DNA from: an uncultured Candidatus Saccharibacteria bacterium
GTDB lineage: Bacteria; Patescibacteriota; Minisyncoccia; Phycocordibacterales; UBA9973
Assembly: GCA_964646765.1 (NCBI GenBank)
Contig: CAZYIA010000003.1
Location: 66,815-130,814, forward strand
Length of the DNA stretch: 64,000 nt
Reading direction: 5' to 3'
Part shown: positions 6-19,875 of the stretch, piece after piece
Layout of the letters: every line of letters starts with the position of its first letter
Numbering within the stretch: position 1 is the first letter of the stretch
The notes under the pieces: model-generated
What the model saw: the letters and a program-made list of their open reading frames with translations, nothing else
What the model was told of the DNA's origin: nothing
Databases searched by the model: none
Program-made: the position numbers and the translations under genes

Positions 6-701
6 GTGCACGGCGACGGCAAGGCAGATTTTGAAACTCTCGCTGATCTCGTAGCAATGAATCGGCCGGAAATGCTCGGAGTAGGGGAACCTCTGGTTAT
101 TGGCGAAATAACTATCCCACGACCAGGAATTGTGCACCGACTCGATAAAGAAACTTCTGGCGTAATGATTCTAGCGAAAACCCACGAAGCTTTTTCATTG
201 CTTAAGTCTGCATTCGCCGATCGCGAAGTTCAGAAGGTATACCATGCGTTTACCTACGGCGCGATAAAAAATTCCGAAGGAGTAATTGATACGCCAATCG
301 GTCGTTCGTCAGGCGATATTCGCAAATGGGCTGTAGCTCGCGGTGCTCGTGGTGAGCTTCGAGAAGCAGTTACTGAATATACTGTTCTTGCTCGCCTCGG
401 ACTTCCAGAAGGGAAAGAGAGAGGTAGCACAGAACCAGGAACCTACTCATATATAGAAGCGCGACCAAAGACTGGCCGAACCCACCAAATCCGAGTGCAT
501 ATGCGCTCGATTAACCATCCAATTATTTGCGACGCCCTCTATGCCCCAGGCCGAGAGGGAGGACTTGGTTTTTCACGATTAGCGCTTCACGCTCGTTCGC
601 TTACCTTAACGCTTCCAAATGGTACAGAGCAGACTTTTACAGCTCCATTTCCGGCTGATTTTATAGAAGCTCGAAAAGTTGCGGGATGCGAAAACGTGTG
701 A
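6..701 (+). CDS. RluA-family pseudouridine synthase (window-truncated at the 5' end)
   Basis: Catalytic HRLDKETSG motif and a conserved C-terminal [10 protein letters not shown] block. The N-terminal S4 / early core is missing, so the gene probably starts upstream of the window. Confidence 0.8.
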
Positions 702-718
702 TAGAGTAAGCCCCGTTA

Positions 719-1681: not shown

Positions 1682-4600
1682 ATGTTACCAATTGCGATTG
1701 CTCGATCATTCCGAGCCACAGTGTTTTCTCTGGTCGTACTTTTCTCATTAACGGCAGTACCGGTATTTGCCGCTCCTCCAACGTTGGCAAATTATACGTA
1801 CGCAACAACAGCAACAACAACGAGTGCGACAGCTGACTACACATTTACTTTTACAACAGCAACTGAGGTTACTAACGCTAGTGAAATGATTTTCAAAGGA
1901 GATTTTGGATCTTCGTTTGATCTCTCATCAAGTACAGCTGCTGTTACTGTTGGCGGCACTCCTATAACAGTTGGAGAATTTTGGAATGGAGGAGGAAGTG
2001 GCAATGTATATATTCGGTTAACTGATACAGTACCCGCAGGCTCAAACGTTGTAGTTACCATTTCAAATATTGTTAATCCAAGTTCAGCAGGGTACTACAC
2101 TATTGACTCGGTTGGGACAGGGGACAGTGGACGAAACACTATTGATGCTGTGCCGTATACAACAACATTTACTATTGGTGATCCTACGCCAATTTTTGAT
2201 GGTGGTGATGGATCTGATGGATCACCATTTTTAATCAGTACATGTTTACAACTACAAGGAATATCGCACGATCTTACTGCTACAGCTCACTATAAACTTA
2301 CGACCGATGTTGATTGTTCAGAAACATCGTCGTGGAATGGTGGTAAAGGATTTACACCACTTGGTGATGGAGGTCATCCATTCATGGGGACATTCTTGGG
2401 TAATGGTCACATAATTTCAAATCTCTATATTAATGATGCAGCTTCTGCGTATGCTGGTTTATTTGGTAATGCCTATGGTGGAGCTGTTATCCGAGGCGTT
2501 CAACTGAGTGGCGCCACCGTTATTGGTGGAACGAGCGTTGGTTCTCTTGTTGGGAGCATGGCTGGCGTTACATTTGAATATAACAGTGTAATAACTGCAA
2601 CGGTAACTGCTTCAAATGGCGCAGGATCCGCTGGAGGACTCATTGGGTATGCGGGAGAAGCGAACAATATTCATGATTCCTACTCACAAGACGCAACCAT
2701 AAACGGAGGCACAAGCGCCGGTGGTGTTATTGGTTGGCTTAATGATGGAGTATACAGTTTAGTTTCTAATCTTTATTTTGCTGGCACCAACCTTACTGCT
2801 GGTGACTTCGCCGGACCAATTGCAGGAAGTTCAAACAATACAGTTTCAAATTCGTTTTATGATCATGATCTATACGGAAGTGATAATGGGGTTGGAACAG
2901 CTAAGACAACCGGTGAGATGCAAACTGAATCAACATTCACTGATGCCACTTGGGATTTTGAAGATGTCTGGGTGCTTAATGTAGAAAGTTATCCAACACT
3001 GCGATGGACAGAGCCGGTAACAGCAACCTATGGTGGAGGCGATGGCTCGGAAGGTAGTCCGTTTCAGATAAGTTCGTGCGATCAGTTGCAGTACATGTCT
3101 CATGATCTTACCGCACATTATATTTTGACCGGAGATGTAGATTGTTCAGGAATTACCAACTTCAAGCCAGTTGGTACGATTGATACTCCGTTTACTGGTG
3201 GATTTGATGGAGATCATCACACTATTTCAAATCTCAATATTAACCGACCACTTCGTGACACGGGTGTTGGTTTGTTCGGCGCAATTCAAGGAGTTGCCAT
3301 CACAGATCTTGTTTTAAACACCAACATAAATATCTCAGGTCATGATTATGTAGGTTCTCTCGTTGGTAACGCTGTTAACAGTCAGATAACAAATGTGACT
3401 GCAACTGCAACAGTTAGTGGCCACGGACAAGTTGGTGGACTGATCGGAGCAATCAATGGTGGAACAAATGTTACGCATTCCTCAGTGCTAAATGGAACCA
3501 CCGTGAGTGGATCCTCAGCTGTTGGTGGTTTGATTGGGTTGGAAGCTTCATCAACATATGGAGTGTTTTATGTGACACAGTCATCCGCGGCAGCTACAAC
3601 CGTGAGCGGTGATAATGGAAACATTGGTGGCTTGATCGGGTATGTTTCAACTGGAGGTATTGCCGATTCATACTCTCAATCAAATATAAGTCTTGGAGGC
3701 ATTGCCGTTTCTCAGGTTGGTGGTCTTATCGGTGGTATGAGTCATGGCATGTTGCTTCGAACCTATGCAGCAGGAACTGTTTCGACAAATAGTACTAATG
3801 CCACTACCGCTGGCTTAGTTGGAGGAGCATTCTTTAGAGGATCAATTACCGACTCATTTAGTGCGGTCCATAACTCTGGTATTGGTGCAAGTTTCGTGTA
3901 TGGATTGTATGGATCATTTAGTCTGGATACTGGTGATGGCTTTGCACTTTCCAATAACTTTTATGACGGAAGTCAAAATGACAGCAACGCATGTTATGCA
4001 AGTGGTCCTGATAGTGAATTAAACTGTGTGCAAATCAATCCAATTGATCCCGCAACATATTGGAAGCAGGTAATTAACAGTCCAATTGCAGTGTGGGATA
4101 CCACTACTGTTTGGAATGTTGCTACCAGTGGTTCAAATTGGCCTGAACTTTATGCAGAAGGTGAGCACGCCCCAACAGTGTTTGCTGGAACAGGTACCAC
4201 AAACGATCCATATCAAATCGGTAGTTGTGGTCAGCTTCAGGCAATGAACGAACACCTCGACTCACACTTTATTCTTTTAAGTGATATTAATTGTTCTGAA
4301 ACTTCAGCTTGGAACAGCGGTCTTGGCTTTTCACCAGTAGGAGATCAGACGGATAGATTCCAGGGAGAACTCAACGGTGACGGTCATACTATTAGCGGTT
4401 TGACGATTAACCGTCCTGCTCAAGTTGATGTTGGTTTGTTTGGATATACAGATGGTGCGCTTATAAAAAATATATCTTTAACCACCGCAACAATTACTGG
4501 TCTTACGTATGTTGGAGCACTGGCAGGTTTTATCCGCGATACGACTCTCAATGATGTATCTATTAGTGCAACCGTGAGTGGTGAAAGTAATATAGGTGCG

Positions 4601-5914
4601 CTTGCCGGAATTATTACAGAATCAACAGTTGAAGACTCAAATTCGGAAGGAACTGTCACCAGTTCTGCTAGTCTTGCTGGTGGTTTTGCTGGGGAGACAG
4701 CTTGCGGATCAGAATTCTCACGTGATTTTTCTACAGCAACTGTGAGCGGCGAAACAGATATTGGTGGATTTACCGGATTTGATGGTTGTGAAGGACCTGG
4801 ATCAATATTTAATGAAGTGTATGCAACTGGTAGTGTGACTGGGACAAATAAAGGCATAGGAGGATTGATTGGTCATGCAGTTCAATCGACAGTTCAAAAT
4901 GCGTATGCGAGTGGTGATGTACACGGATCTGACTTAGTTGGTGGTCTTGTTGGAAACGGAATGGATGGTACCTATGCAAAAGTATATGCTCGAGGCCATG
5001 TAACCGGAACTACAGGAAATGTTGGTGGATTATTTGGTAAATTAGCTGGCCAAGAAATTACCATCTCTAATACCGATACTTTTTTTGACGCAACTATTAT
5101 GTCTAACGATCCTGGAACTTGGGGGACAGGGAAGACAACAGCGCAAATGAATTCTAATGGAACATTTATTACTGCTGGTTGGGATTTTGAAGAAGTGTGG
5201 GCTCGCCGTGATGTGCACAATGATGGCTACCCATACTTTAAGTGGCAGTTTGAAGAAACAGACACAACAGCCCCAGTTATCATTTTGACTTCACAACCTC
5301 CACGAAATACAACTACTTCAAATGTCATTTGGGCATTTCAAACAAATGAAGCTTGTGAGGTGATTGCCGAACCAATAGTTGCATCTCCAGCATATGAGGC
5401 TGAGCTTCTCTTTGAAGAAGTTCAGGTTGGTACTAATGTTCATGGAACACTACAACCAGTTCAAACAGGGGAAACATACACTATTACATTTAGTTGTCGC
5501 GATAACGCAGGTAATGTTTCAAATGAGCTCACCGTCGGACCATTTACTGTTGGGAATGGCTCAGGTCCTGTTCTTATCACCACTCCTATCCCAGGATATG
5601 GAGGAGTTCCGCCACTTAATTCTTCTACGGGCACTCCTGGATTAAATGGTGGAATCTCAAACACTGAAATTTTCACGCACGATCTCGGCTTTGGTATGAC
5701 TGATCCTGATGTGAAGCGTCTCCAAGAGTACCTTAACAGCCACAATGCTCAAATTGCTAAATCTGGTCCTGGATCTCCAGGAAAAGAAACTACCCGATTT
5801 GGTTCTCTCACGAGAAGCGCTCTTAAGAAATTTCAGAAAGCACACGGCATTACCCCAACAACTGGTTACTTTGGACCAAAGACCCGAAAGTGGGTGAATG
5901 AGCACTGGAATTAG
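1682..5914 (+). CDS. Giant secreted GLUG-repeat surface protein with C-terminal peptidoglycan-binding domain (1410 aa)
   Basis: N-terminal signal peptide (FSLVVLFSLTAVPVFAAPP). Three copies of a roughly 280-aa module (GDGSxGSPFxIxxCxQLQxxxHDLxxHYxLxxDxDCSxT...GHxISNLxIN) followed by arrays of GGLIG/GGLVG (GLUG) motifs. The C-terminal 60 aa form a PG_binding_1-like domain (LQEYLN...GPGSPGKETTRFGSLTRSALKKFQKAHGITPTTGYFGPKTR). Confidence 0.85.
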   Translation: MLPIAIARSFRATVFSLVVLFSLTAVPVFAAPPTLANYTYATTATTTSATADYTFTFTTATEVTNASEMIFKGDFGSSFDLSSSTAAVTVGGTPITVGEFWNGGGSGNVYIRLTDTVPAGSNVVVTISNIVNPSSAGYYTIDSVGTGDSGRNTIDAVPYTTTFTIGDPTPIFDGGDGSDGSPFLISTCLQLQGISHDLTATAHYKLTTDVDCSETSSWNGGKGFTPLGDGGHPFMGTFLGNGHIISNLYINDAASAYAGLFGNAYGGAVIRGVQLSGATVIGGTSVGSLVGSMAGVTFEYNSVITATVTASNGAGSAGGLIGYAGEANNIHDSYSQDATINGGTSAGGVIGWLNDGVYSLVSNLYFAGTNLTAGDFAGPIAGSSNNTVSNSFYDHDLYGSDNGVGTAKTTGEMQTESTFTDATWDFEDVWVLNVESYPTLRWTEPVTATYGGGDGSEGSPFQISSCDQLQYMSHDLTAHYILTGDVDCSGITNFKPVGTIDTPFTGGFDGDHHTISNLNINRPLRDTGVGLFGAIQGVAITDLVLNTNINISGHDYVGSLVGNAVNSQITNVTATATVSGHGQVGGLIGAINGGTNVTHSSVLNGTTVSGSSAVGGLIGLEASSTYGVFYVTQSSAAATTVSGDNGNIGGLIGYVSTGGIADSYSQSNISLGGIAVSQVGGLIGGMSHGMLLRTYAAGTVSTNSTNATTAGLVGGAFFRGSITDSFSAVHNSGIGASFVYGLYGSFSLDTGDGFALSNNFYDGSQNDSNACYASGPDSELNCVQINPIDPATYWKQVINSPIAVWDTTTVWNVATSGSNWPELYAEGEHAPTVFAGTGTTNDPYQIGSCGQLQAMNEHLDSHFILLSDINCSETSAWNSGLGFSPVGDQTDRFQGELNGDGHTISGLTINRPAQVDVGLFGYTDGALIKNISLTTATITGLTYVGALAGFIRDTTLNDVSISATVSGESNIGALAGIITESTVEDSNSEGTVTSSASLAGGFAGETACGSEFSRDFSTATVSGETDIGGFTGFDGCEGPGSIFNEVYATGSVTGTNKGIGGLIGHAVQSTVQNAYASGDVHGSDLVGGLVGNGMDGTYAKVYARGHVTGTTGNVGGLFGKLAGQEITISNTDTFFDATIMSNDPGTWGTGKTTAQMNSNGTFITAGWDFEEVWARRDVHNDGYPYFKWQFEETDTTAPVIILTSQPPRNTTTSNVIWAFQTNEACEVIAEPIVASPAYEAELLFEEVQVGTNVHGTLQPVQTGETYTITFSCRDNAGNVSNELTVGPFTVGNGSGPVLITTPIPGYGGVPPLNSSTGTPGLNGGISNTEIFTHDLGFGMTDPDVKRLQEYLNSHNAQIAKSGPGSPGKETTRFGSLTRSALKKFQKAHGITPTTGYFGPKTRKWVNEHWN
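5693..5905 (+). repeat. Shared C-terminal PG-binding cassette, nucleotide-level repeat (partner at 11861-12075; diverged copy at about 9430-9640)
   Basis: 5693-5737 and 11861-11905 match at 41 of 44 nt (GGyATGACTGAyCCTGATGTGAAGCGTCTCCAAGAGTAyCTTAA). Similarity continues through GGATCTCCAGGA...TTTGGACCAAAGAC, about 80 % identity over roughly 200 nt. Confidence 0.7.
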
Positions 5915-5945
5915 GTCTCAGTACTACAAATTTATCCACACATAT

Positions 5946-5978
5946 AGTAAAGGGAGCCAAGTCTTGGCTCCCTTTACT
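5946..5978 (+). terminator. Perfect 16-bp inverted repeat between surface-protein genes 1 and 2
   Basis: AGTAAAGGGAGCCAAG-tc-TTGGCTCCCTTTACT. There is no T tract, so it could be a terminator, an attenuator or an RNA processing/protein-binding site. Confidence 0.5.
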
Positions 5979-5993
5979 ATATACTTAGAGCAT

Positions 5994-8900: not shown

Positions 8901-9665
8901 ATTACCGCTCCACAGTCAGGTAGTTCTTATAAAACCAATGAAACGATGCATTTTAATTTCACACTTCCAGAGTTAATGTCTGCCGATACTTTGTCTATCA
9001 CATTTACGCGAACTGACACAGATGCCTCCGATATTGTTCTCAATATGAAGGATGCAAATGCAGAACAAGAAAATATCTTTGATTTACCTCTCAATAATCT
9101 AGCTGGTGCAGAAGAAGTAGTACTTGCTCACGTGATGCAGGATACGGTAAACAATATTCCTGCTGGAACCTATACCATTACGCTTTCGTACCAAGATGCT
9201 GCAGGAAATCCTGCTGCTACGGCTTCAATTTCAAATATTGTTATTGCTGAACCGACAGTCACTTCGCACAACGTTACTCTTATTCCTTCAGGCCCTGGTA
9301 GTATTGGACACTTTGTTTCATCTTCAGGTACGAACGCATCCGACTGCCAACCAGGATTTCTTGTTTCGCCAAATACGGGGCAATCCTGTATCCAGGAGCA
9401 ACAGCCCACAGCTATCTTCCTCAAGGACCTCAAAAAGGGAATGGTTGATCCCGACGTCTCTAAACTTCAACACTACCTTGATCTCGCTGGTTTCCCAGTA
9501 GCACTTACTGGCCCAGGCTCGCTTAACCATGAAACTACGACTTTTGGGTCAAAAACAGTGATAGCTTTAAAGAAATTTCAGAAAGCTCATGGTATTCCAG
9601 CAACTGGTTTCTTTGGACCAAAAACGAGAGCCTATGTTAATGCTCATCTCGATATACTCAAATAA
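5994..9665 (+). CDS. Giant secreted GLUG-repeat protein with LamG (concanavalin-like) lectin domain and C-terminal peptidoglycan-binding domain
   Basis: ATG at 5994 gives a signal peptide (MFISRRLFSVVFFAIAIVLVSGVSFPTIVHAAA), whereas the track start at 5898 overlaps gene 1. GLUG motifs are present (VGGLIGEMTG, IGGLVGSAAN, TGGLVGKGD). A Laminin_G_3-like block spans LHGATLPS...GTISLWAYP...NQWNHLVMTW...LYVNGV...GKIDEVRVYDYAL. The C-terminus is PG_binding_1-like (DVSKLQHYLD...FQKAHGIPATGFFGPKTRAYV). Confidence 0.85.
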   Translation: MFISRRLFSVVFFAIAIVLVSGVSFPTIVHAAATDVTSCADFENINNSLDGDYVLTTNIDCTDEGNAIMVGTDGSPFTGTFDGQGHKITVNINVTGSDYVGLFRAISDPGTRVENLWVSGTIAVTNQHGTGAVVGETKSNSTVSEVVSDATITSNYYNVGGLIGEMTGNSLLADSYFVGSVTANINIGGLVGSAANAEITTSYAAGEIHTDYFHNWAGGLVGHTFNSAVYIIYSFNASSMDTNGGGLIGYRDDTLSVSDSYYDATISGATACDHEDVGGSLTGCTAIVGNSGYFKDDVTSTAPFAGGTWNFTDTWEIATNDYPRLKVFEALYPVPTYAGGVGTPENPYQITTCAGIEDIDNHLSASYVLNSDIDCTSAQNDIIVRGQFSGTFNGNGHTITLYIDTTDDGIGLFEILYGAHVKNLHLSGQIMGGGLEGALAGTADNGTIIQYVGSDVSVSTHTGSNLTGGLVGLLTQHSLISNSFSTGEITADGYATGGLVGSLFYSGSIDRSYASGAVHGGTDTGGLVGKGDTQAGSITQSFQAGHVDGGPNTGSIIGERAAATLADDYFDADINGLGAVCAGDASNACTFVNGEGSNPNYFINNSENPPFPEWDFNNVWITSTGKLPYLRTPVTASMAYYPLDDISGSFTQTTPDLTGFRDATLHGATLPSRVTGNFQHALSFNGSNYASTSLPFSQSGTISLWAYPTTTGAGISPAGWKLTGPGNGYVLLDEGDGSHWRANFQPDIDGASGVVVEDLSSIATNQWNHLVMTWSYNSIANETTVHLYVNGVDKGSEIWAGTPGANGLGGFNIGKSGDSNGDYFTGKIDEVRVYDYALGAGEVADLAGLAVDHVSGVPTVTATSPEDGATGVQTNHEMSGTITFSEAMNPNLSELSFAPCASTCPTAVLGWDNGDTVLGFLINDPNPLAPNTEYTVIVRGQSVEGVLMASPYSFSFTTEDTVTETPIMEITAPQSGSSYKTNETMHFNFTLPELMSADTLSITFTRTDTDASDIVLNMKDANAEQENIFDLPLNNLAGAEEVVLAHVMQDTVNNIPAGTYTITLSYQDAAGNPAATASISNIVIAEPTVTSHNVTLIPSGPGSIGHFVSSSGTNASDCQPGFLVSPNTGQSCIQEQQPTAIFLKDLKKGMVDPDVSKLQHYLDLAGFPVALTGPGSLNHETTTFGSKTVIALKKFQKAHGIPATGFFGPKTRAYVNAHLDILK

Positions 9666-9784: not shown

Positions 9785-12082
9785 ATGGTAAAGAAAATCC
9801 TGTTTCCGGTCGCTTTTATTTTTCTTAGTTTTGCTGTAGCTGGTGGCCTGTCGGCTAAAGTTGCTTTTGCTGCACCACAGTGTCATGCCATTGCTACGGG
9901 TAATTGGAGCGACCCTGCCATCTGGAGCAACTGTCATGGTGTTGGTGGTCTTCCAGACGCAACCGATATTGTAAGTATTTCTACTGATTCAATAGTTACT
10001 GTTGACGTCTCTAATGCTGTAGCCCGATCATTATATGTTTATGATTCTGTAAATGCTTCACGTGGCTATACGTTTACCCCCTCAGGAGTTCTTACGGTTA
10101 CCGATTACGCTACCCTTTCTGGATCAAGTGGTTCAGGGTCACAATTCATAAACGTTGGCGACGGTACTCTTATTCTCGGGGGAAATCTTCGTATAGATGG
10201 AGGGATTCTTGGTACAGCAACCGTAACTGTTAACAATGGCACTCTTACTGTTGGAGGAAGTATTCTGATGTCAGGTGGCCTAAATGCAAGTCTAGTTTCA
10301 ACTGGAACGAGTACTATCAATGTTGGAGGAGACTTAACCAATGGAGTGTTAACAACCTCAGGAACTGGAACGATAAATTTTAATGGAACTGGGGCCCAGG
10401 AGGTTTCTCCATATGCTACTTTTAATAACGTTATCATCTCGAATACTGGTGGTACTGTAACCATTGATTCAGGAGCCACTGTTATTGGCGGGGACTTATC
10501 TGTTACCTCTGGAGATCTTTATCTTGATGGTGGAACACTTGATGTTTTAGGAGATACCACAATTTCGAGTGGTGCTACATGGAGTGAAGGACCAGGTATG
10601 GCGGTTACTTTTGCTGGGAATCTCGAAAATGAAGGAACGTTTACTGCTGATACTGGTAACCATACGTTTACTGGGACTGGTAAAACAATTAGTGGAGGAA
10701 GTGGAATAGATATTCCTAATTTAGTTATTAGTGGAACTATTACTAACCACAATACTCATGCCCTCACAGCATCTTCCAGCCTATCAGGCGCCGGCACCCT
10801 CACTAATGCTAGTAGTGCAATCTTAGAAATTGGTGGAGATCTTACTATTACTACACTTGTTGCCTCTATTCCTGGTAACTTTGTGAAATACACTAAAGCG
10901 GGTGATCAAACAATTCGGGCGATCGAGTACAGCCTCCTTGCGGTGAAAAATGGGGGAGTGAAAACTATTCCTTCTGGTATTACTGTTGATTTTGCTCTAG
11001 TTATCAATGTGGGAAATGTCGTTGATTTGACGGGAACAACAACCACTCAGGTTCTGTATATGAATAATGCTAGCCAAGATGTTGGCTCTTGGGGTGCGAC
11101 TGGATCAGGGGCTGCAAATATTAACGACACCTTCTTTTCTGGAACCGGAACGGTTAATGTCACTGGTCTGACGGCAACCATTACTATCGACAGTATTTCA
11201 AATGATACCGGCGTTTCTTCGTCTGATTTTATTACCAAAACTGCAGGACAAACAGTGAATGTAACGATGAGTTTCCCCTATATTTCTGGAGAAACAGTTG
11301 AAGGTTCTGTTGATGGAGGAGCAACCTATACTAATATCAGCAGCATGGCTTCTGGAACGTCGGTTGTTTGGACTGGAGTGACATTGGCTAGTGGAACAAA
11401 CACGCTGAAAGTACGAGTTACACTTGCTCCTTCAGATATTTCTGGAACACAGGTTTATACACTTGATACTGATGCTCCAGGAACTATCGCAGCGACACCG
11501 AGCGCTGGGACATTTTCGTCATCTCAGAGCGTAACGCTCAGTTCCTCAGGAGCTACGACTGTGTACTATACGACTGATGGCACTTCTCCTTCGTGCTCAT
11601 CAGGTACACTATACTCTGGGCCGATCACTGTTTCTTCATCCGAAACTATAAACGCGATTGCTTGTGATGATGCTGGTAATGAAACGACTGGATCGTTTAC
11701 CTATACGATACACACTGGTGGGGGATCAGTATTTCTTATTCCTACTTTGCCAGTCATATCAGCTAACCTTTTAGGAAATTTGACTCAGCCACAAACCACT
11801 ACAGGTAGAGCAGGTGAACAGAATACTTCAAAAGAGTTATTCCCAAAGAATTTGTATAAAGGCATGACTGACCCTGATGTGAAGCGTCTCCAAGAGTATC
11901 TTAATGGCACATCATTTATGGTTGCGAAAACCGGCCCAGGATCTCCAGGACATGAAACTTCTCGCTTTGGTCCTGCTACGGCAAAGGCGTTAATGCTCTT
12001 CCAAAAGAGTATCGGTATTACACCGGCAACTGGTGGTTTTGGACCAAAGACGAGAGCGTACGTAAACACACATTCTCACTAA
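9785..12082 (+). CDS. Secreted beta-helix-repeat surface protein with chitobiase/hexosaminidase C-terminal-like domain and C-terminal peptidoglycan-binding domain
   Basis: Signal peptide (MVKKILFPVAFIFLSFAVAGGLSAKVAFAAP). Gly/Thr-rich parallel beta-helix-like repeats. TVYYTTDGTSPSCSSGTLYSGPITVSSSETINAIACDDAGNETTGSF resembles the CHB_HEX_C_1 fold. The C-terminus is PG_binding_1-like (DVKRLQEYLN...FQKSIGITPATGGFGPKTRAYV). Confidence 0.8.
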   Translation: MVKKILFPVAFIFLSFAVAGGLSAKVAFAAPQCHAIATGNWSDPAIWSNCHGVGGLPDATDIVSISTDSIVTVDVSNAVARSLYVYDSVNASRGYTFTPSGVLTVTDYATLSGSSGSGSQFINVGDGTLILGGNLRIDGGILGTATVTVNNGTLTVGGSILMSGGLNASLVSTGTSTINVGGDLTNGVLTTSGTGTINFNGTGAQEVSPYATFNNVIISNTGGTVTIDSGATVIGGDLSVTSGDLYLDGGTLDVLGDTTISSGATWSEGPGMAVTFAGNLENEGTFTADTGNHTFTGTGKTISGGSGIDIPNLVISGTITNHNTHALTASSSLSGAGTLTNASSAILEIGGDLTITTLVASIPGNFVKYTKAGDQTIRAIEYSLLAVKNGGVKTIPSGITVDFALVINVGNVVDLTGTTTTQVLYMNNASQDVGSWGATGSGAANINDTFFSGTGTVNVTGLTATITIDSISNDTGVSSSDFITKTAGQTVNVTMSFPYISGETVEGSVDGGATYTNISSMASGTSVVWTGVTLASGTNTLKVRVTLAPSDISGTQVYTLDTDAPGTIAATPSAGTFSSSQSVTLSSSGATTVYYTTDGTSPSCSSGTLYSGPITVSSSETINAIACDDAGNETTGSFTYTIHTGGGSVFLIPTLPVISANLLGNLTQPQTTTGRAGEQNTSKELFPKNLYKGMTDPDVKRLQEYLNGTSFMVAKTGPGSPGHETSRFGPATAKALMLFQKSIGITPATGGFGPKTRAYVNTHSH

Positions 12083-19221: not shown

Positions 19222-19296
19222 GGTGCCCATGGTGTAACGGTTAACACAGAGGTTTGTGGAACCTTTAATTCGAGTTCGATTCTCGATGGGCACCCA
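19222..19296 (+). tRNA. tRNA-His (anticodon GTG) with genome-encoded G-1
   Basis: G-1 plus acceptor GTGCCCA/TGGGCAC, discriminator C. Anticodon stem GAGGT/ACCTT with loop TTGTGGA. T-arm TCGAG-TTCGATT-CTCGA. Confidence 0.85.
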
Positions 19297-19305
19297 AGAC
19301 GAAAC

Positions 19306-19330
19306 AAACGGCAACTACTTGCCGTTTTTT
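19306..19330 (+). terminator. Rho-independent terminator after tRNA-His
   Basis: GGCAA-ctact-TTGCC followed by T6. Confidence 0.7.
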
Positions 19331-19500
19331 CGTACTTGGGTGAGCCGGAGCCATGTTTCGCGAGCACGCGAAACCGGCGAGGCGGGGTCGCGAGCAAAAT
19401 TGCTCGACGGAGCAGTTTTGACTTGTGACCCCAAGGCTAGTGCCCAAGTGACTGGCGAGCCAAGAGTCGCGGACGATTCTCGATGGGCGATGATACTTTT
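19328..19500 (+). ncRNA. Unclassified structured RNA-like element, copy B of the tRNA-adjacent conserved element
   Basis: Core 19328-19401 is homologous to 1333-1405. Stem GTTTCGCG-agcac-CGCGAAAC (19345-19364) differs from copy A by a compensatory pair (U.A to C.G). A second hairpin CGAGCA-aaat-TGCTCG follows. The element ends with CGATTCTCGATGGGC (19474-19488), a 15-nt direct repeat of the tRNA-His T-arm/acceptor 3' end (19277-19291). Confidence 0.4.
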
Positions 19501-19515
19501 GCTACACTATAGTTC

Positions 19516-19875
19516 ATGAAAATCATCTTCATTGCCGGCCCAGTTCGTGGGGACGGCTCGCTTGAATCAAAGCGAAAAAATATTGAGAGTGCTCGCGTAC
19601 TTATACGCGAGTGTATTACCCAGGGGATCCCATTTTATTCACCACATTTAAATGTGGATCAGGAAAGTATCGAAATGATAGGGGATCTTGGTCAATTTGC
19701 TTGGAATTTAAATGCTGAAATGCTTCGCCGCTCAGATGCTCTCGCAGTTCTTCCAGGATTTGAAGATTCGGTTGGTACAAAAAAAGAAATTTCAATTGCT
19801 ACAGATAGCGGGAAACCAGTGTTTTATCTTCCTAACGATTTTGCCAAAATTGTAAGTTGGCTTTCAGAATCGTAA
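19516..19875 (+). CDS. DUF4406-like protein (nucleoside 2-deoxyribosyltransferase-like fold)
   Basis: MKIIFIAGP...DALAVLPGFEDSVGTKKEISIATDSGKPVFY follows the DUF4406 pattern (Y/FIAGP ... D..v.L.gWe.S.G...E...A...gkpV). Confidence 0.5.
   Translation: MKIIFIAGPVRGDGSLESKRKNIESARVLIRECITQGIPFYSPHLNVDQESIEMIGDLGQFAWNLNAEMLRRSDALAVLPGFEDSVGTKKEISIATDSGKPVFYLPNDFAKIVSWLSES

Follow-up and report, generated by a model that had tools for sequence, protein, structure and literature searches.

We conclude that the second copy of a 15-nt repeat lying downstream of the tRNA-His gene in the window (the whole 64-kb stretch of DNA that was analysed) is, with little doubt, the 3' strand of a tRNA-derived frame. 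This frame belongs to a large family of modules that are found in the 3' flank of tRNA genes of CPR bacteria (Patescibacteria), on the same strand as the tRNA. We are confident that each module comprises a structured core, a closing helix (P1) and a hairpin (P0) whose loop is usually of the CUGC type. To our knowledge, the CPR make up a large share of bacterial diversity, and we know of almost nothing concerning their non-coding RNAs. The result presented here is at least one widespread and strongly covarying RNA family, together with several sister cores, all of them absent from Rfam 15. A literature search found no description of such elements, or of their architecture, in which the closing stem is formed by a copy and an inverted copy of the 3' end of the preceding tRNA.

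The tRNA-His locus, copy B, carries the following features.

19222 to 19295, + strand: tRNA-His(GUG), placed at 19223–19295 by ARAGORN and scoring 61.4 bits with the Rfam tRNA model; the encoded G-1, read from the sequence, is 19222.
19277 to 19291, + strand: first copy of the repeat, CGATTCTCGATGGGC, an exact match running from C56 of the T loop to acceptor position 70.
19299 to 19333, + strand: P0 hairpin of unit B in the minimum-free-energy fold, with an A tract, a 9-bp GC-rich stem, a CUAC loop and a U tract.
19334 to 19449, + strand: core of unit B, of the unframed class (fold z-score −8.1; covariance model match at 19331–19391, E = 1e-16).
19436 to 19491, + strand: probable decayed remnant of a framed unit, from its 3' half, with the sequence GUGCCCA..AGUGAC.GGCGAGCC..AGAGUCGCGGA, then the copy of the tRNA-His 3' end.
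19474 to 19488, + strand: second copy of the repeat, CGATTCTCGATGGGC, at the position where framed units hold their direct copy of the tRNA 3' end.

As an initial annotation of this DNA had described, the two copies match exactly and are 197 nt apart, measured from start to start. They are the only occurrences of the 15-mer in the 64-kb window, both on the + strand, and no third copy with up to two mismatches was found there (shuffled sequences give a mean of 0.11 matches). Within tRNA-His, the first copy spans C56 of the T loop, the 3' strand of the T stem and acceptor 3'-strand positions 66–70, so that the last two bases of the acceptor stem are not included; the next bases are ACCCA in the tRNA and GATGA after the second copy. 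When the last 28 nt of each tRNA are compared with the 3' flank of elements at other tRNA types, the 99th percentile of the longest shared word is only 10 nt, which places the 15-nt repeat well outside chance.

The two 15-mers had also been described as bracketing the conserved core. The core unit instead closes on its own stem, P1, in which 19334–19341 are paired with 19442–19449; its two hairpins are P2 (19344–19383), with a GGA/GA internal loop and a GCG-AGCA-CGC tip, and P3 (19384–19432), with a GACG tip. The stretch that follows, 19436–19491, aligns with the part of framed units that comprises P3b and the repeat, both in unit A2 of the window and in the units L014, L036, L098, L108 and L026. 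As judged from these alignments, copy B would in all likelihood combine an unframed unit with the decayed remains of the 3' half of a framed one, and the 3' segment 19436–19496 folds no better than shuffled sequences (z = −0.4). The GTGCCCA of copy B was considered as a copy of the tRNA-His 5' end, and rejected because the same GGTGCCCAGA is kept in framed units at Ser, Tyr and Leu tRNAs. The P0 hairpin of unit B looks, in its predicted fold, like an intrinsic terminator, and throughout the family the core is preceded by a hairpin of the P0 type, its loop being CUGC, CUAC or UUCG.

Copy A, at the tRNA-Leu gene, is more elaborate.

1207 to 1291, + strand: tRNA-Leu(GAG), identified by ARAGORN and Rfam.
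1297 to 1326, + strand: P0 hairpin of unit A1 in the predicted fold, with an A tract, GGCGA-CUGC-UCGCC and a U tract.
1326 to 1433, + strand: core of unit A1, of the unframed class (covariance model match at 1326–1385, E = 7e-19; fold z-score −5.7).
1429 to 1458, + strand: second terminator-like hairpin in the predicted fold, between units A1 and A2.
1462 to 1599, + strand: unit A2, framed by tRNA-Leu (covariance model match at 1494–1553, E = 3e-13; fold z-score −4.6).

In this copy, very probably, an unframed unit comes first and a complete unit with a tRNA-Leu frame second. Three units of the window are recognised by the covariance model of the P2 hairpin region (1326–1385, 1494–1553 and 19331–19391, with E values from 7e-19 to 3e-13), which bears out the earlier observation that copies A and B share a conserved core. 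In unit A1, P1 pairs 1326–1333 with 1426–1433, P2 is formed by 1339–1377 and P3 by 1380–1424. Unit A2 contains the inverted tRNA-Leu fragments that the initial annotation had reported, and these do match the tRNA: GCGCGGG (1462–1468) is a copy of the acceptor 5' strand, and GGAGATTTGAAC, from 1495, is the complement of tRNA-Leu GTTCAAATCTTCTCC with one gap, 1495–1506 representing the 5' strand of the T stem plus UUUGAAC. P0 (1471–1492, with a CUGC loop) lies between the two fragments. P2 (1506–1546, with the variant hairpin AUUCGGCU-AGCA-AGCCGAAU) and P3b (1549–1590) come next, and the unit ends with CAAATCTTCT (1590–1599), a direct copy of the T loop and the 3' part of the T stem of tRNA-Leu.

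Framed units in general end with an exact copy, 11–22 nt long, of the 3' end of the neighbouring tRNA, usually from C56, and open with an inverted copy of the tRNA end that is split by P0. The direct and inverted copies together would give an acceptor/T-arm-like stem that encloses the core. The framed fold is thus very likely a minihelix, in which the core takes the place of the T loop and P0 that of the D and anticodon arms. A direct repeat of at least 11 nt is present in 18 of the 28 framed units, and an inverted copy of at least 9 nt also in 18 of 28, the 99th percentile of the null being 10 nt in each case. For the 24 units of both classes that have a repeat of at least 11 nt, the repeat starts 19 nt before the end of the tRNA, at C56, in 11. 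Its length in the frame ranges from below 10 to above 25 nt, with ends that differ for each tRNA and that run on into the tRNA trailer at L014 and L042, and the paired length on the acceptor side varies from 4 to 10 bp.

The frame also surrounds cores of other kinds: at 19 of 65 tRNAs without a type A core, the core type of the window, a repeat of the tRNA 3' end of at least 13 nt occurs 35–212 nt downstream, and several unrelated cores share the one frame architecture. An independent scan seeded on P0 gave 35 tRNA-linked contexts, 33 of them scorable, with a direct repeat of at least 11 nt in 15 and an inverted copy of at least 7 nt in 26. Most tRNA-adjacent units are nevertheless of the unframed class, located 56–65 nt from the tRNA end and without a tRNA-derived repeat; just 6 of 40 have one of at least 11 nt. 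The proposal that copies A and B represent a family of miniature tRNA-targeting elements therefore stands as regards a family with a conserved structured core, but the tRNA-derived repeat expected of such elements is missing from most of its unframed members.

The type A core is a junction of two hairpins. P2 has the GGA/GA internal loop and GCG-AGCA-CGC tip already noted for unit B, and P3 has a conserved G·U pair, a bulged A and a GC-GACG-GC tip; in the unframed class, P1 is a short UUUGUG/CACAAA-like helix. Covariation in P2 is extensive, with 96% of cells paired and 134 double-change cells, a level reached by none of 500 shuffles. P3 also covaries, and the G·U pair is present in 58 of 65 sequences. 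The P3 region is more stable by 6.1 kcal/mol on the tRNA-sense strand (91 of 101 units), strand-specific folding of this kind fitting RNA and single-stranded DNA alike. Related cores and P0 contain GUAA (GNRA) and UUCG tetraloops, and loops and tips are nearly invariant in sequence across members. Since the tRNA-Leu and tRNA-His copies are separated by many compensatory changes (A1 and B differ in this way in P2a, P2b, the P2 hairpin and P3), the type A cores of the window are old paralogues, not the products of a recent burst.

Could the units be non-functional debris, tandem duplicates of tRNAs and terminators or pseudogenes of these in the course of decay, with the 15-mer as a leftover? The poor folding of the 3' segment of copy B points this way, partial frames are common, and in a congener (L160) tRNA-Leu is preceded by a duplicate of part of its own 5' end. 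Such a reading can hold for the 19436–19491 remnant alone. For the family it is very improbable, given the conservation of the cores in several CPR candidate phyla, their extensive compensatory changes and invariant loops, the strand-specific folding, and the occurrence of the same architecture at more than 30 tRNA types. A double-stranded, protein-binding palindrome was rejected on the evidence of two compensatory variants in one genome and, again, of strand-specific folding. Several further candidates were set aside by eye: a canonical kink-turn in P2, which would need a longer bulge; an anticodon arm formed by P0, whose loop has 4–6 nt; a pseudoknot between the P0 and P2 loops, where CUGC and GCAG do not co-vary among members; and guide RNAs of the H/ACA-like or C/D-like kind, for which there is no pocket and there are no boxes.

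How widely is the family distributed? It is, we believe with high confidence, restricted to the CPR/Patescibacteria. A search of contigs from one genome per species, seeded with one exact 20-nt P2 hairpin pattern, matched at least 117 stretches, about 100 of which have the family context and are true members; these counts are not counts of independent events, since the loci were seeded on one exact hairpin and many of the sequences are related. Host labels include Saccharibacteria, Paceibacterota, Moraniibacteriota, Kaiser-, Nomura-, Lloyd- and Yonathbacteria, or simply 'bacterium'. Three family matches carry the label Bdellovibrionales. Rfam 15 has no match for any core. In the window only tRNAs reach the gathering score, excluding a known RNA family, and around both copies nothing relevant appears up to an E-value of 10; the classes without a match include HDV-like and other ribozymes, tmRNA, Y RNA, T-box, 6S, SRP and RNase P. 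Close to a tmRNA gene (L254), a P0 hairpin lies outside the tmRNA and on the other strand, and was left out of the counts. Same-strand copies of P0 are also found in the spacer between a 16S rRNA and a tRNA and directly 3' of a 5S rRNA.

The association of the units with tRNA genes is strong. A same-strand tRNA lies less than 300 nt upstream in 85 of 111 units, representing more than 30 anticodons, and across these anticodons the spacing from the tRNA end to P2 has peaks at 56–62 nt, a fixed distance seen in about 40 cases, and at 74–112 nt; 13 units are preceded by a same-strand ORF. The gene downstream is on the same strand in 52 cases and on the opposite strand in 36, without strong orientation bias, implying that the link is to the tRNA. 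These proportions, and the 12 units after which another tRNA comes next, also led us to reject a 5' UTR or riboswitch of the downstream gene.

A link of this kind would suit a cis-acting switch on maturation of the neighbouring tRNA, in which the inverted copy pairs either with the T-stem and acceptor 3' strands of the tRNA, causing it to misfold, or with the downstream direct copy, freeing the tRNA, the choice being made by a factor bound to the core. A tRNA 3' end, its complement and a second copy are the classic geometry of mutually exclusive helices, and units A2 and L122 keep the complement of the acceptor though its downstream partner has been lost, leaving the tRNA as the sole partner. 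The larger, unframed class, however, has no complement to the tRNA, a terminator often stands between tRNA and unit, the 13 units noted above come after protein genes, and several unrelated cores in one frame are ill-suited to a single sensor. We regard a switch as improbable in consequence. Priming by mature tRNA, in the style of a retroviral primer-binding site, was rejected by eye, the inverted copy being complementary to the discriminator and genomic trailer and not to CCA.

What, then, is the origin and role of the modules? Our preferred reading, which we hold tentatively and at a little below even confidence, is that they are RNA modules situated in the 3' flank of the tRNA, whose 3' end was duplicated locally to build them. 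If the frame is built in this way, the repeat is a by-product of construction of the closing stem and not a phage-type scar. The mechanism as a whole, covering transcription, processing, upkeep of the frame and exchange of cores, is put forward with slightly more reserve. The modules would act as RNA, made by transcription running on from the tRNA gene, and could be released and stabilised by the enzymes of stable RNA, with RNase P or RNase Z recognising the tRNA-like stem and RNase III the long stem. The invariant hairpin tips may be sites of contact with protein or RNA. The frame would arise through local duplication of the tRNA 3' end, from T loop to trailer; gene conversion, together with templated correction of the inverted arm, would keep it similar to the tRNA, and recombination would swap cores between frames.

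Some features argue against parts of this scheme. In unframed units, P0 and its U tract, which are like an intrinsic terminator, stand before the core, counter to its being read as RNA, and many framed units come after a separate terminator. With terminator-like P0 or another terminator ahead of the core, its transcription would depend on read-through; a search for a sigma-70 promoter belonging to the unit itself gave no convincing match. Pairing often extends past the discriminator into the trailer (as at L014 and L106), which speaks against a clean RNase P substrate, and tRNA mimicry is not strictly required, as the acceptor part of the frame has been lost in A2 of the window, L122 and L097. 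Moreover, a mobile element would account just as well for the variable occurrence of units among relatives, for the tandem arrays and for the gene cassettes between units.

Orthologous loci in relatives were reached through ribosomal protein L19. The DUF892 neighbour of tRNA-His was also tried as an anchor, but its nearest homologue is 47% identical and gave no usable empty site. The initial annotation had allowed that the segment might prove ancestral at every tRNA-His locus of related genomes; an empty site does exist in a relative (L164), where the upstream synteny of pterin-4a dehydratase, VKOR and tRNA-His is kept and the next gene follows after 70 nt, with no unit. At tRNA-Leu, the congener L160 (∼80% nucleotide identity) has a frame without either type A P2-P3 core, and this orthologous frame holds the remnant of another core. 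In a sister strain (L161), the tRNA-Leu site is occupied by a genuine element with a large serine recombinase and a Prim-Pol; in the 7.4 kb examined there, the covariance model gives one sub-threshold match (15.3 bits, E = 0.04), adjacent to tRNA-Arg and far from the recombinase.

These differences between relatives raise the possibility, in our view an unlikely one, that the units are miniature, non-autonomous integrative elements, each a folded attachment site inserted at the tRNA T loop by a recombinase encoded elsewhere. In integron attC sites and in CTX phage attP, single-stranded DNA folds into a duplex resembling the target. In the CPR units the inverted copy would likewise let a single strand fold into a target-mimicking duplex, the direct repeat would be attL/attR, the variable core would serve either as the terminal structure of that site or as small RNA cargo, and larger versions would carry genes. 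Consistent with this, the repeat starts at a fixed point in the T loop and reaches to the tRNA end and trailer, sites in relatives are empty, differently filled or, as in the sister strain, taken by the serine-recombinase element, and a core has been replaced inside an orthologous frame. Near-identical interiors are found at different tRNAs of one genome (L097/L122, L015/L103 and L047/L125), units form tandem arrays at L095 and L042, and genes sit between repeated blocks of spacer plus unit at L098, L104 and L093, with a remnant at L043.

Against integration stands the missing machinery. The initial annotation had proposed looking for the core beside tyrosine-integrase genes in other CPR genomes and phages; no integrase, recombinase, transposase or reverse transcriptase recurs near the roughly 100 units (779 ORFs compared all against all), the clusters of neighbouring ORFs being scattered housekeeping families, each at nine loci at most. 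Pattern scans of IMG/VR gave no true copies, each yielding either no match or just chance matches in high-GC coding DNA, and sensitive blastn in 'distant' mode gave no match in phage and plasmid collections. The conserved G·U pair, GNRA and UUCG loops and invariant loop sequences are features of RNA type, the two type A cores of the window are old, the unframed class is mostly without tRNA-derived repeats, and a different target copy would be needed for each of more than 30 tRNAs. An attL/attR pair, as first suggested for the 15-mers, is thus supported in its geometry, a duplication of the tRNA 3' end that recurs in the 18 of 28 framed units, but not in any link to integrase, phage or plasmid. 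It is weakened further because an att scar predicts neither the inverted copy of the tRNA end nor the RNA-type signals.

A more speculative variant, to which we give little credence although it is less improbable than the switch, would make the units the cassettes of an integron-like system for small RNAs, with the T loop and 3' end of the tRNA as attI and the frame as attC. Cores, and sometimes protein genes, could then be swapped by a recombinase or an RNA-templated enzyme encoded elsewhere in CPR genomes, and the target specificity of each cassette could be written as its copy of the tRNA end.

If, as in our preferred reading, the modules are processed RNAs, they would be a natural counterpart of engineered "tRNA scaffolds", and organisms with minimal genomes would be expressing small RNAs from tRNA transcription units. 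If they are mobile, they would be tRNA-targeted cassettes of a novel, protein-less type. In both cases, the family accounts for many of the tRNA-fragment "pseudogenes" and tRNA-adjacent repeats in CPR assemblies, and offers concrete targets for study in the few cultivated CPR strains.

Finally, comparison with known systems shows where the CPR units are familiar and where they differ. Integrative elements that use tRNA 3' ends are tyrosine-integrase islands and prophages that cross over within the T loop, the sublocation of their integration sites reportedly having been treated by Williams in 2002. As in the CPR units, a direct repeat from T loop to 3' end and further on brackets the insert, the tRNA stays intact, relatives have empty sites and genes may lie between the repeats. 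Unlike them, the CPR units have no linked integrase and no phage or plasmid copies, their insert is only 100–250 nt, they carry an inverted copy of the target and an RNA-like fold, and their largest class is repeat-free. Integron attC sites share with them an imperfect inverted-repeat stem, an extruded element and a variable terminal structure, and form arrays with or without ORFs. The attC sites are conserved mainly in structure, whereas the loop and tip sequences of the CPR units are strongly conserved; no IntI-like gene is found near the latter, their stem is copied from the neighbouring tRNA, and GNRA/UUCG loops and the G·U pair point to RNA.

Among tRNA-like RNAs (the tmRNA domain, YrlA/Y RNAs, MALAT1 mascRNA and viral tRNA-like structures), an acceptor/T-arm-like coaxial stem, which the framed fold would resemble, is combined with replacement of the anticodon domain, and by analogy processing by tRNA enzymes is plausible for the CPR modules. 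In these, however, a large structured core stands in place of the T loop itself, the stem has the same sequence as the adjacent tRNA and may pass the discriminator, and each of the many copies per genome matches a different tRNA. Some functional RNAs come from tRNA 3' trailers or spacers, 3'ETS-leuZ of E. coli being an example. Theta HDV-like ribozymes adjoin phage tRNAs (PMC10879173). Both resemble the CPR modules in that a structured RNA directly follows a tRNA gene, shares its strand and is presumably co-transcribed with it. The CPR core, in contrast, has no similarity to HDV-like or Rfam families, forms a three-way junction and not a nested double pseudoknot, and begins 40–100 nt past the tRNA, and the tRNA-copied frame has no counterpart in those RNAs. 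MITEs and REP-like repeats, lastly, are also short, non-coding, multi-copy, hairpin-rich and intergenic, and often lie by terminators. The CPR units differ from these in having no constant terminal inverted repeats and no target duplication of fixed length, and no related transposase was found; they are conserved over several candidate phyla with compensatory changes, and take their ends from the local tRNA.

The 15-nt sequence CGATTCTCGATGGGC that the initial annotation described as a direct repeat of the tRNA-His 3' end is exact, occurring in the window only at 19277-19291 and 19474-19488; no third copy is present there even when two mismatches are allowed, and shuffled sequence yields a mean of 0.11 matches. 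Read against the sequence, the first copy starts at C56 in the T loop and ends at acceptor-strand position 70. tRNA-His(GUG) and tRNA-Leu(GAG) are the only tRNAs that ARAGORN and Rfam find in the window, and each is followed by a conserved segment that folds much better than shuffled sequence (z-scores of -7.4 and -8.6). Compared with Rfam 15, this segment has no match to any family at E-values up to 10. We refer to the folded module 3' of a tRNA as a unit, consisting of a hairpin P0, a closing helix P1 and a core, which in type A contains hairpins P2 and P3. A covariance model of the P2 region matches the window three times.

1207-1291, tRNA-Leu(GAG), ARAGORN and Rfam
1326-1385, P2-region covariance model match
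1494-1553, P2-region covariance model match
19223-19295, tRNA-His(GUG), ARAGORN and Rfam
19331-19391, P2-region covariance model match

Units fall into two classes: framed, with P1 strands copied from the neighbouring tRNA 3' end, and unframed, with a short closing helix resembling UUUGUG/CACAAA. In copy A, after tRNA-Leu, an unframed unit (1326-1433) precedes a complete tRNA-Leu-framed one (1462-1599); the inverted tRNA-Leu fragments already noticed here are the 5' strands of the latter's frame. Copy B, after tRNA-His, contains an unframed unit with its own closing stem, 19334-19341 with 19442-19449 (z = -8.1). The segment 19436-19496 folds no better than chance (z = -0.4) and matches, column for column, the 3' half of framed units adjoining Ser, Tyr and Leu tRNAs. 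This alignment, in which the second copy of CGATTCTCGATGGGC takes the exact position of the tRNA copy, identifies the 3' segment of copy B as the remnant of a framed unit. The two 15-mers had been thought to bracket one enclosed element; the repeat stands, but the core unit closes on its own stem and the second 15-mer lies in the remnant. To regard the elements as debris is very hard to credit, and plausible for the remnant at 19436-19491 only. The motif GTGCCCA in copy B, considered as a tRNA-His 5'-end fragment, was rejected as such; it is a conserved part of the framed-unit 3' half.

The gene directly after unit B (19516-19875) encodes a 119-aa protein resembling DUF4406 and nucleoside 2-deoxyribosyltransferases. 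Identical copies of it occur on six contigs in Logan and ENA assemblies, and L001-L003, the three fetched loci with enough upstream sequence, all carry the element. Elsewhere in the window, three large secreted proteins share a C-terminal repeat of ~70 residues (5693-5905, 9438-9647 and 11861-12073); for one copy, at 5672-5911, Pfam gives a match to the peptidoglycan-binding domain PG_binding_1. The 1410-aa gene is followed directly by a perfect inverted repeat (5942-5982), probably a terminator, with arms of 20 nt separated by 1 nt.

How widespread are such units? The search seed GTTTNGCGAGCACGCNAAAC, built from a 20-nt hairpin that varies by compensatory changes between the window copies, finds at least 117 stretches in a one-genome-per-species collection. 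About 100 of the 117 matches listed share the same flanking context, the remainder being chance matches in unrelated genomes; in the fetched loci the P2 covariance model picks up additional copies whose hairpins have diverged. As loci were gathered by exact seed patterns, diversity is under-sampled and counts are biased. The family members listed are labelled Saccharibacteria, Paceibacterota, Moraniibacteriota, Kaiser-, Nomura-, Lloyd- or Yonathbacteria or plain 'bacterium', and three among the matches listed carry a Bdellovibrionales label. We conclude that the family is large and restricted to CPR bacteria. One Saccharibacteria genome (L095) has two near-identical tandem units after tRNA-Ala(GGC) and a third after tRNA-Ala(CGC), ~2 kb away.

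L095, 1761-1954 and 4135-4195, minus strand, units

Units are linked to tRNA genes. Among the matches listed, 85 of 111 units have a same-strand tRNA less than 300 nt upstream (13 follow a same-strand ORF), more than 30 anticodons are represented, and the distance from tRNA end, as called by ARAGORN, to P2 hairpin peaks at 56-62 nt (~40 cases) and at 74-112 nt. In the fetched loci a unit follows 83 of 157 tRNAs that have no other tRNA after them, a proportion inflated by the choice of loci. A role as leader of the downstream gene was rejected, since among the matches listed that gene shares the strand of the unit in 52 cases and is on the opposite one in 36. Another conceivable role, as a switch in tRNA maturation, we consider improbable.

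In the framed class, which has the longer spacing, the unit ends in an exact copy of the neighbouring tRNA 3' end. This copy reaches at least 11 nt in 18 of the 28 framed units listed, the 99th percentile for mismatched tRNA/element pairs being 10 nt, and in only six of the 40 listed unframed units, which have the shorter spacing; copy B is among these six. Over both classes, 11 of the 24 listed units with a copy of at least 11 nt begin it 19 nt before the tRNA end, at C56. Often the copy extends into the trailer, by 10 nt in L014 and ~40 nt in L042. An inverted copy lies 5' of the core, in the order acceptor 5' strand, P0, T-stem 5' strand and a UUCGAA-like stretch (match of at least 9 nt in 18 of the 28 listed). 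From the direct 3' and inverted 5' copies, the framed unit is therefore predicted to fold as an acceptor/T-arm-like stem, with the core in place of the T loop and P0 in place of the D and anticodon arms. Since the inverted copy can pair with the discriminator and genomic trailer (L014, L106), its model is the gene or primary transcript rather than the mature CCA-ended tRNA. The 15-nt repeat is a family trait.

The frame also occurs around other cores. A tRNA 3'-end copy of at least 13 nt, 35-212 nt downstream, is found at 19 of 65 tRNAs without a type A core, and between these repeats lies the same frame with cores of provisional types B, C and D, delimited by eye and without a match in Rfam 15.

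Type B: UUAUUUUU...AAAAAUGGAAAAGGUGUAC with a GUAA-capped hairpin
Type C: GGGGUCGGGAAA...GGUCUUCCGAGGGCUAGAGGG
Type D: GC-rich

One general frame accommodates variable cores. At least three structured cores other than type A share it (L015 6964-7152; L114 ~530-707, minus strand; L079, L125, L018 and L117). A common P0 sequence, GAAGCCAACTGCTTGGCTTC (20 nt, CUGC loop), gives at least 120 stretches in an exact scan of JGI metagenomes. Among the matches listed, 35 of 106 distinct contexts are tRNA-linked, and the 33 of these that can be scored include 15 with a direct repeat of at least 11 nt and 26 with an inverted copy of at least 7 nt. This hairpin is likewise present within a 16S-tRNA spacer and directly 3' of 5S rRNA, on the same strand. 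About two thirds of the distinct contexts listed (loci L167-L286) are not tRNA frames; GAAGCCAACTGCTTGGCTTC is very common in CPR-rich metagenomes (e.g. L170 4959-4978, L199 215-234) and lies inside several recurrent unannotated motifs, such as GGGAGTCGAGGAGGAGTAAA-hairpin-GTACCTCCGAGACGGGTTGG.

The structure of the type A core bears on its chemical nature. P2 has standard pairing in 96% of cells, with changes on both sides in 134; none of 500 shuffles reaches these values, although relatedness among many family sequences means that shuffle tests overstate independence, and pairing is lost when the partners are shifted. In P3 most positions covary; it has one G.U pair in 58 of 65 sequences and ends in a GC-GACG-GC tip, frequently flanked by tandem G.A. 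Over the P3 region the tRNA-sense strand is more stable than its complement by 6.1 kcal/mol on average (91 of the 101 units listed), and GUAA and UUCG tetraloops occur in sister cores and P0 hairpins. Covariation, strand-specific folding and tetraloops together point to an RNA core; computation by itself is compatible with folded single-stranded DNA too.

The repeat had been read as an attL/attR-like pair left by integration at a tRNA 3' end, and a protein-less integrative cassette mobilised by a recombinase whose gene lies elsewhere is the main rival explanation, possible and on balance doubtful. Relatives fetched through ribosomal protein L19 homologues do provide the empty sites that this predicts. 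L164 (~70% nucleotide identity over rluD-rplS-tRNA-Leu) shares the order pterin-4a dehydratase, VKOR, tRNA-His; its tRNA-His has no unit, the next gene following after 70 nt, and its tRNA-Arg and tRNA-Val carry units. L160 (~80% nucleotide identity) has tRNA-Leu together with a terminator and a homologue of the frame of unit 1462-1599, and lacks both type A cores; the core position is taken by the 3' hairpin from type B. Turnover is also seen as near-identical interiors at different tRNAs of one genome (L097/L122, L015/L103, L047/L125) and as genes between repeated spacer-plus-unit blocks (L098, L104, L093; a remnant in L043). Several results speak against integration: units have no recurrent neighbour among recombinases or other protein families, no copies were found in IMG/VR (no match to GTTTNGCGAGCACGCNAAAC), phage or plasmid collections, and the window's type A cores behind tRNA-Leu and tRNA-His, which differ by compensatory changes in the 20-nt hairpin, are old, compensated paralogues. 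As a further sign of turnover, in a sister strain of L160, whose L19 protein is identical, a mobile element is inserted at the tRNA-Leu(GAG) 3' end (L161 4116-7396; L162), encoding a 547-aa large serine recombinase (Resolvase and Recombinase domains), with the reading frame running into the tRNA, and then a Prim-Pol/PriCT_1 protein.

The gene-containing blocks adjoin tRNA-Ser or tRNA-Tyr (L098 4660-5830; L104 4067-7700, minus strand; L093 6871-7900; L043 2080-4311), and the genes encode a 145-aa protein with no Pfam match, a 994-aa protein, a DUF488 protein and a serine hydrolase with an AAA_33 kinase; in L043 a truncated gene fragment precedes the unit remnant. In L160 a 19-nt tRNA-Leu 5'-end duplicate, ATGCGCAGGTGGCGAAATT, lies ~100 nt upstream of the tRNA (3989-4007 and 4087-4105), with a tRNA-Leu-like fragment between the two copies.

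Overall we favour, tentatively and with an inferred mechanism, RNA modules flanking tRNAs on the 3' side. Read-through transcription from the tRNA would produce them and stable-RNA processing enzymes would excise them; frames would arise as local duplicates of the tRNA 3' end, and cores would be swapped by recombination. We are confident that the finding belongs to a real, widespread and unannotated family of tRNA-linked structured modules, of which the 15-nt repeat is the tRNA-derived frame.
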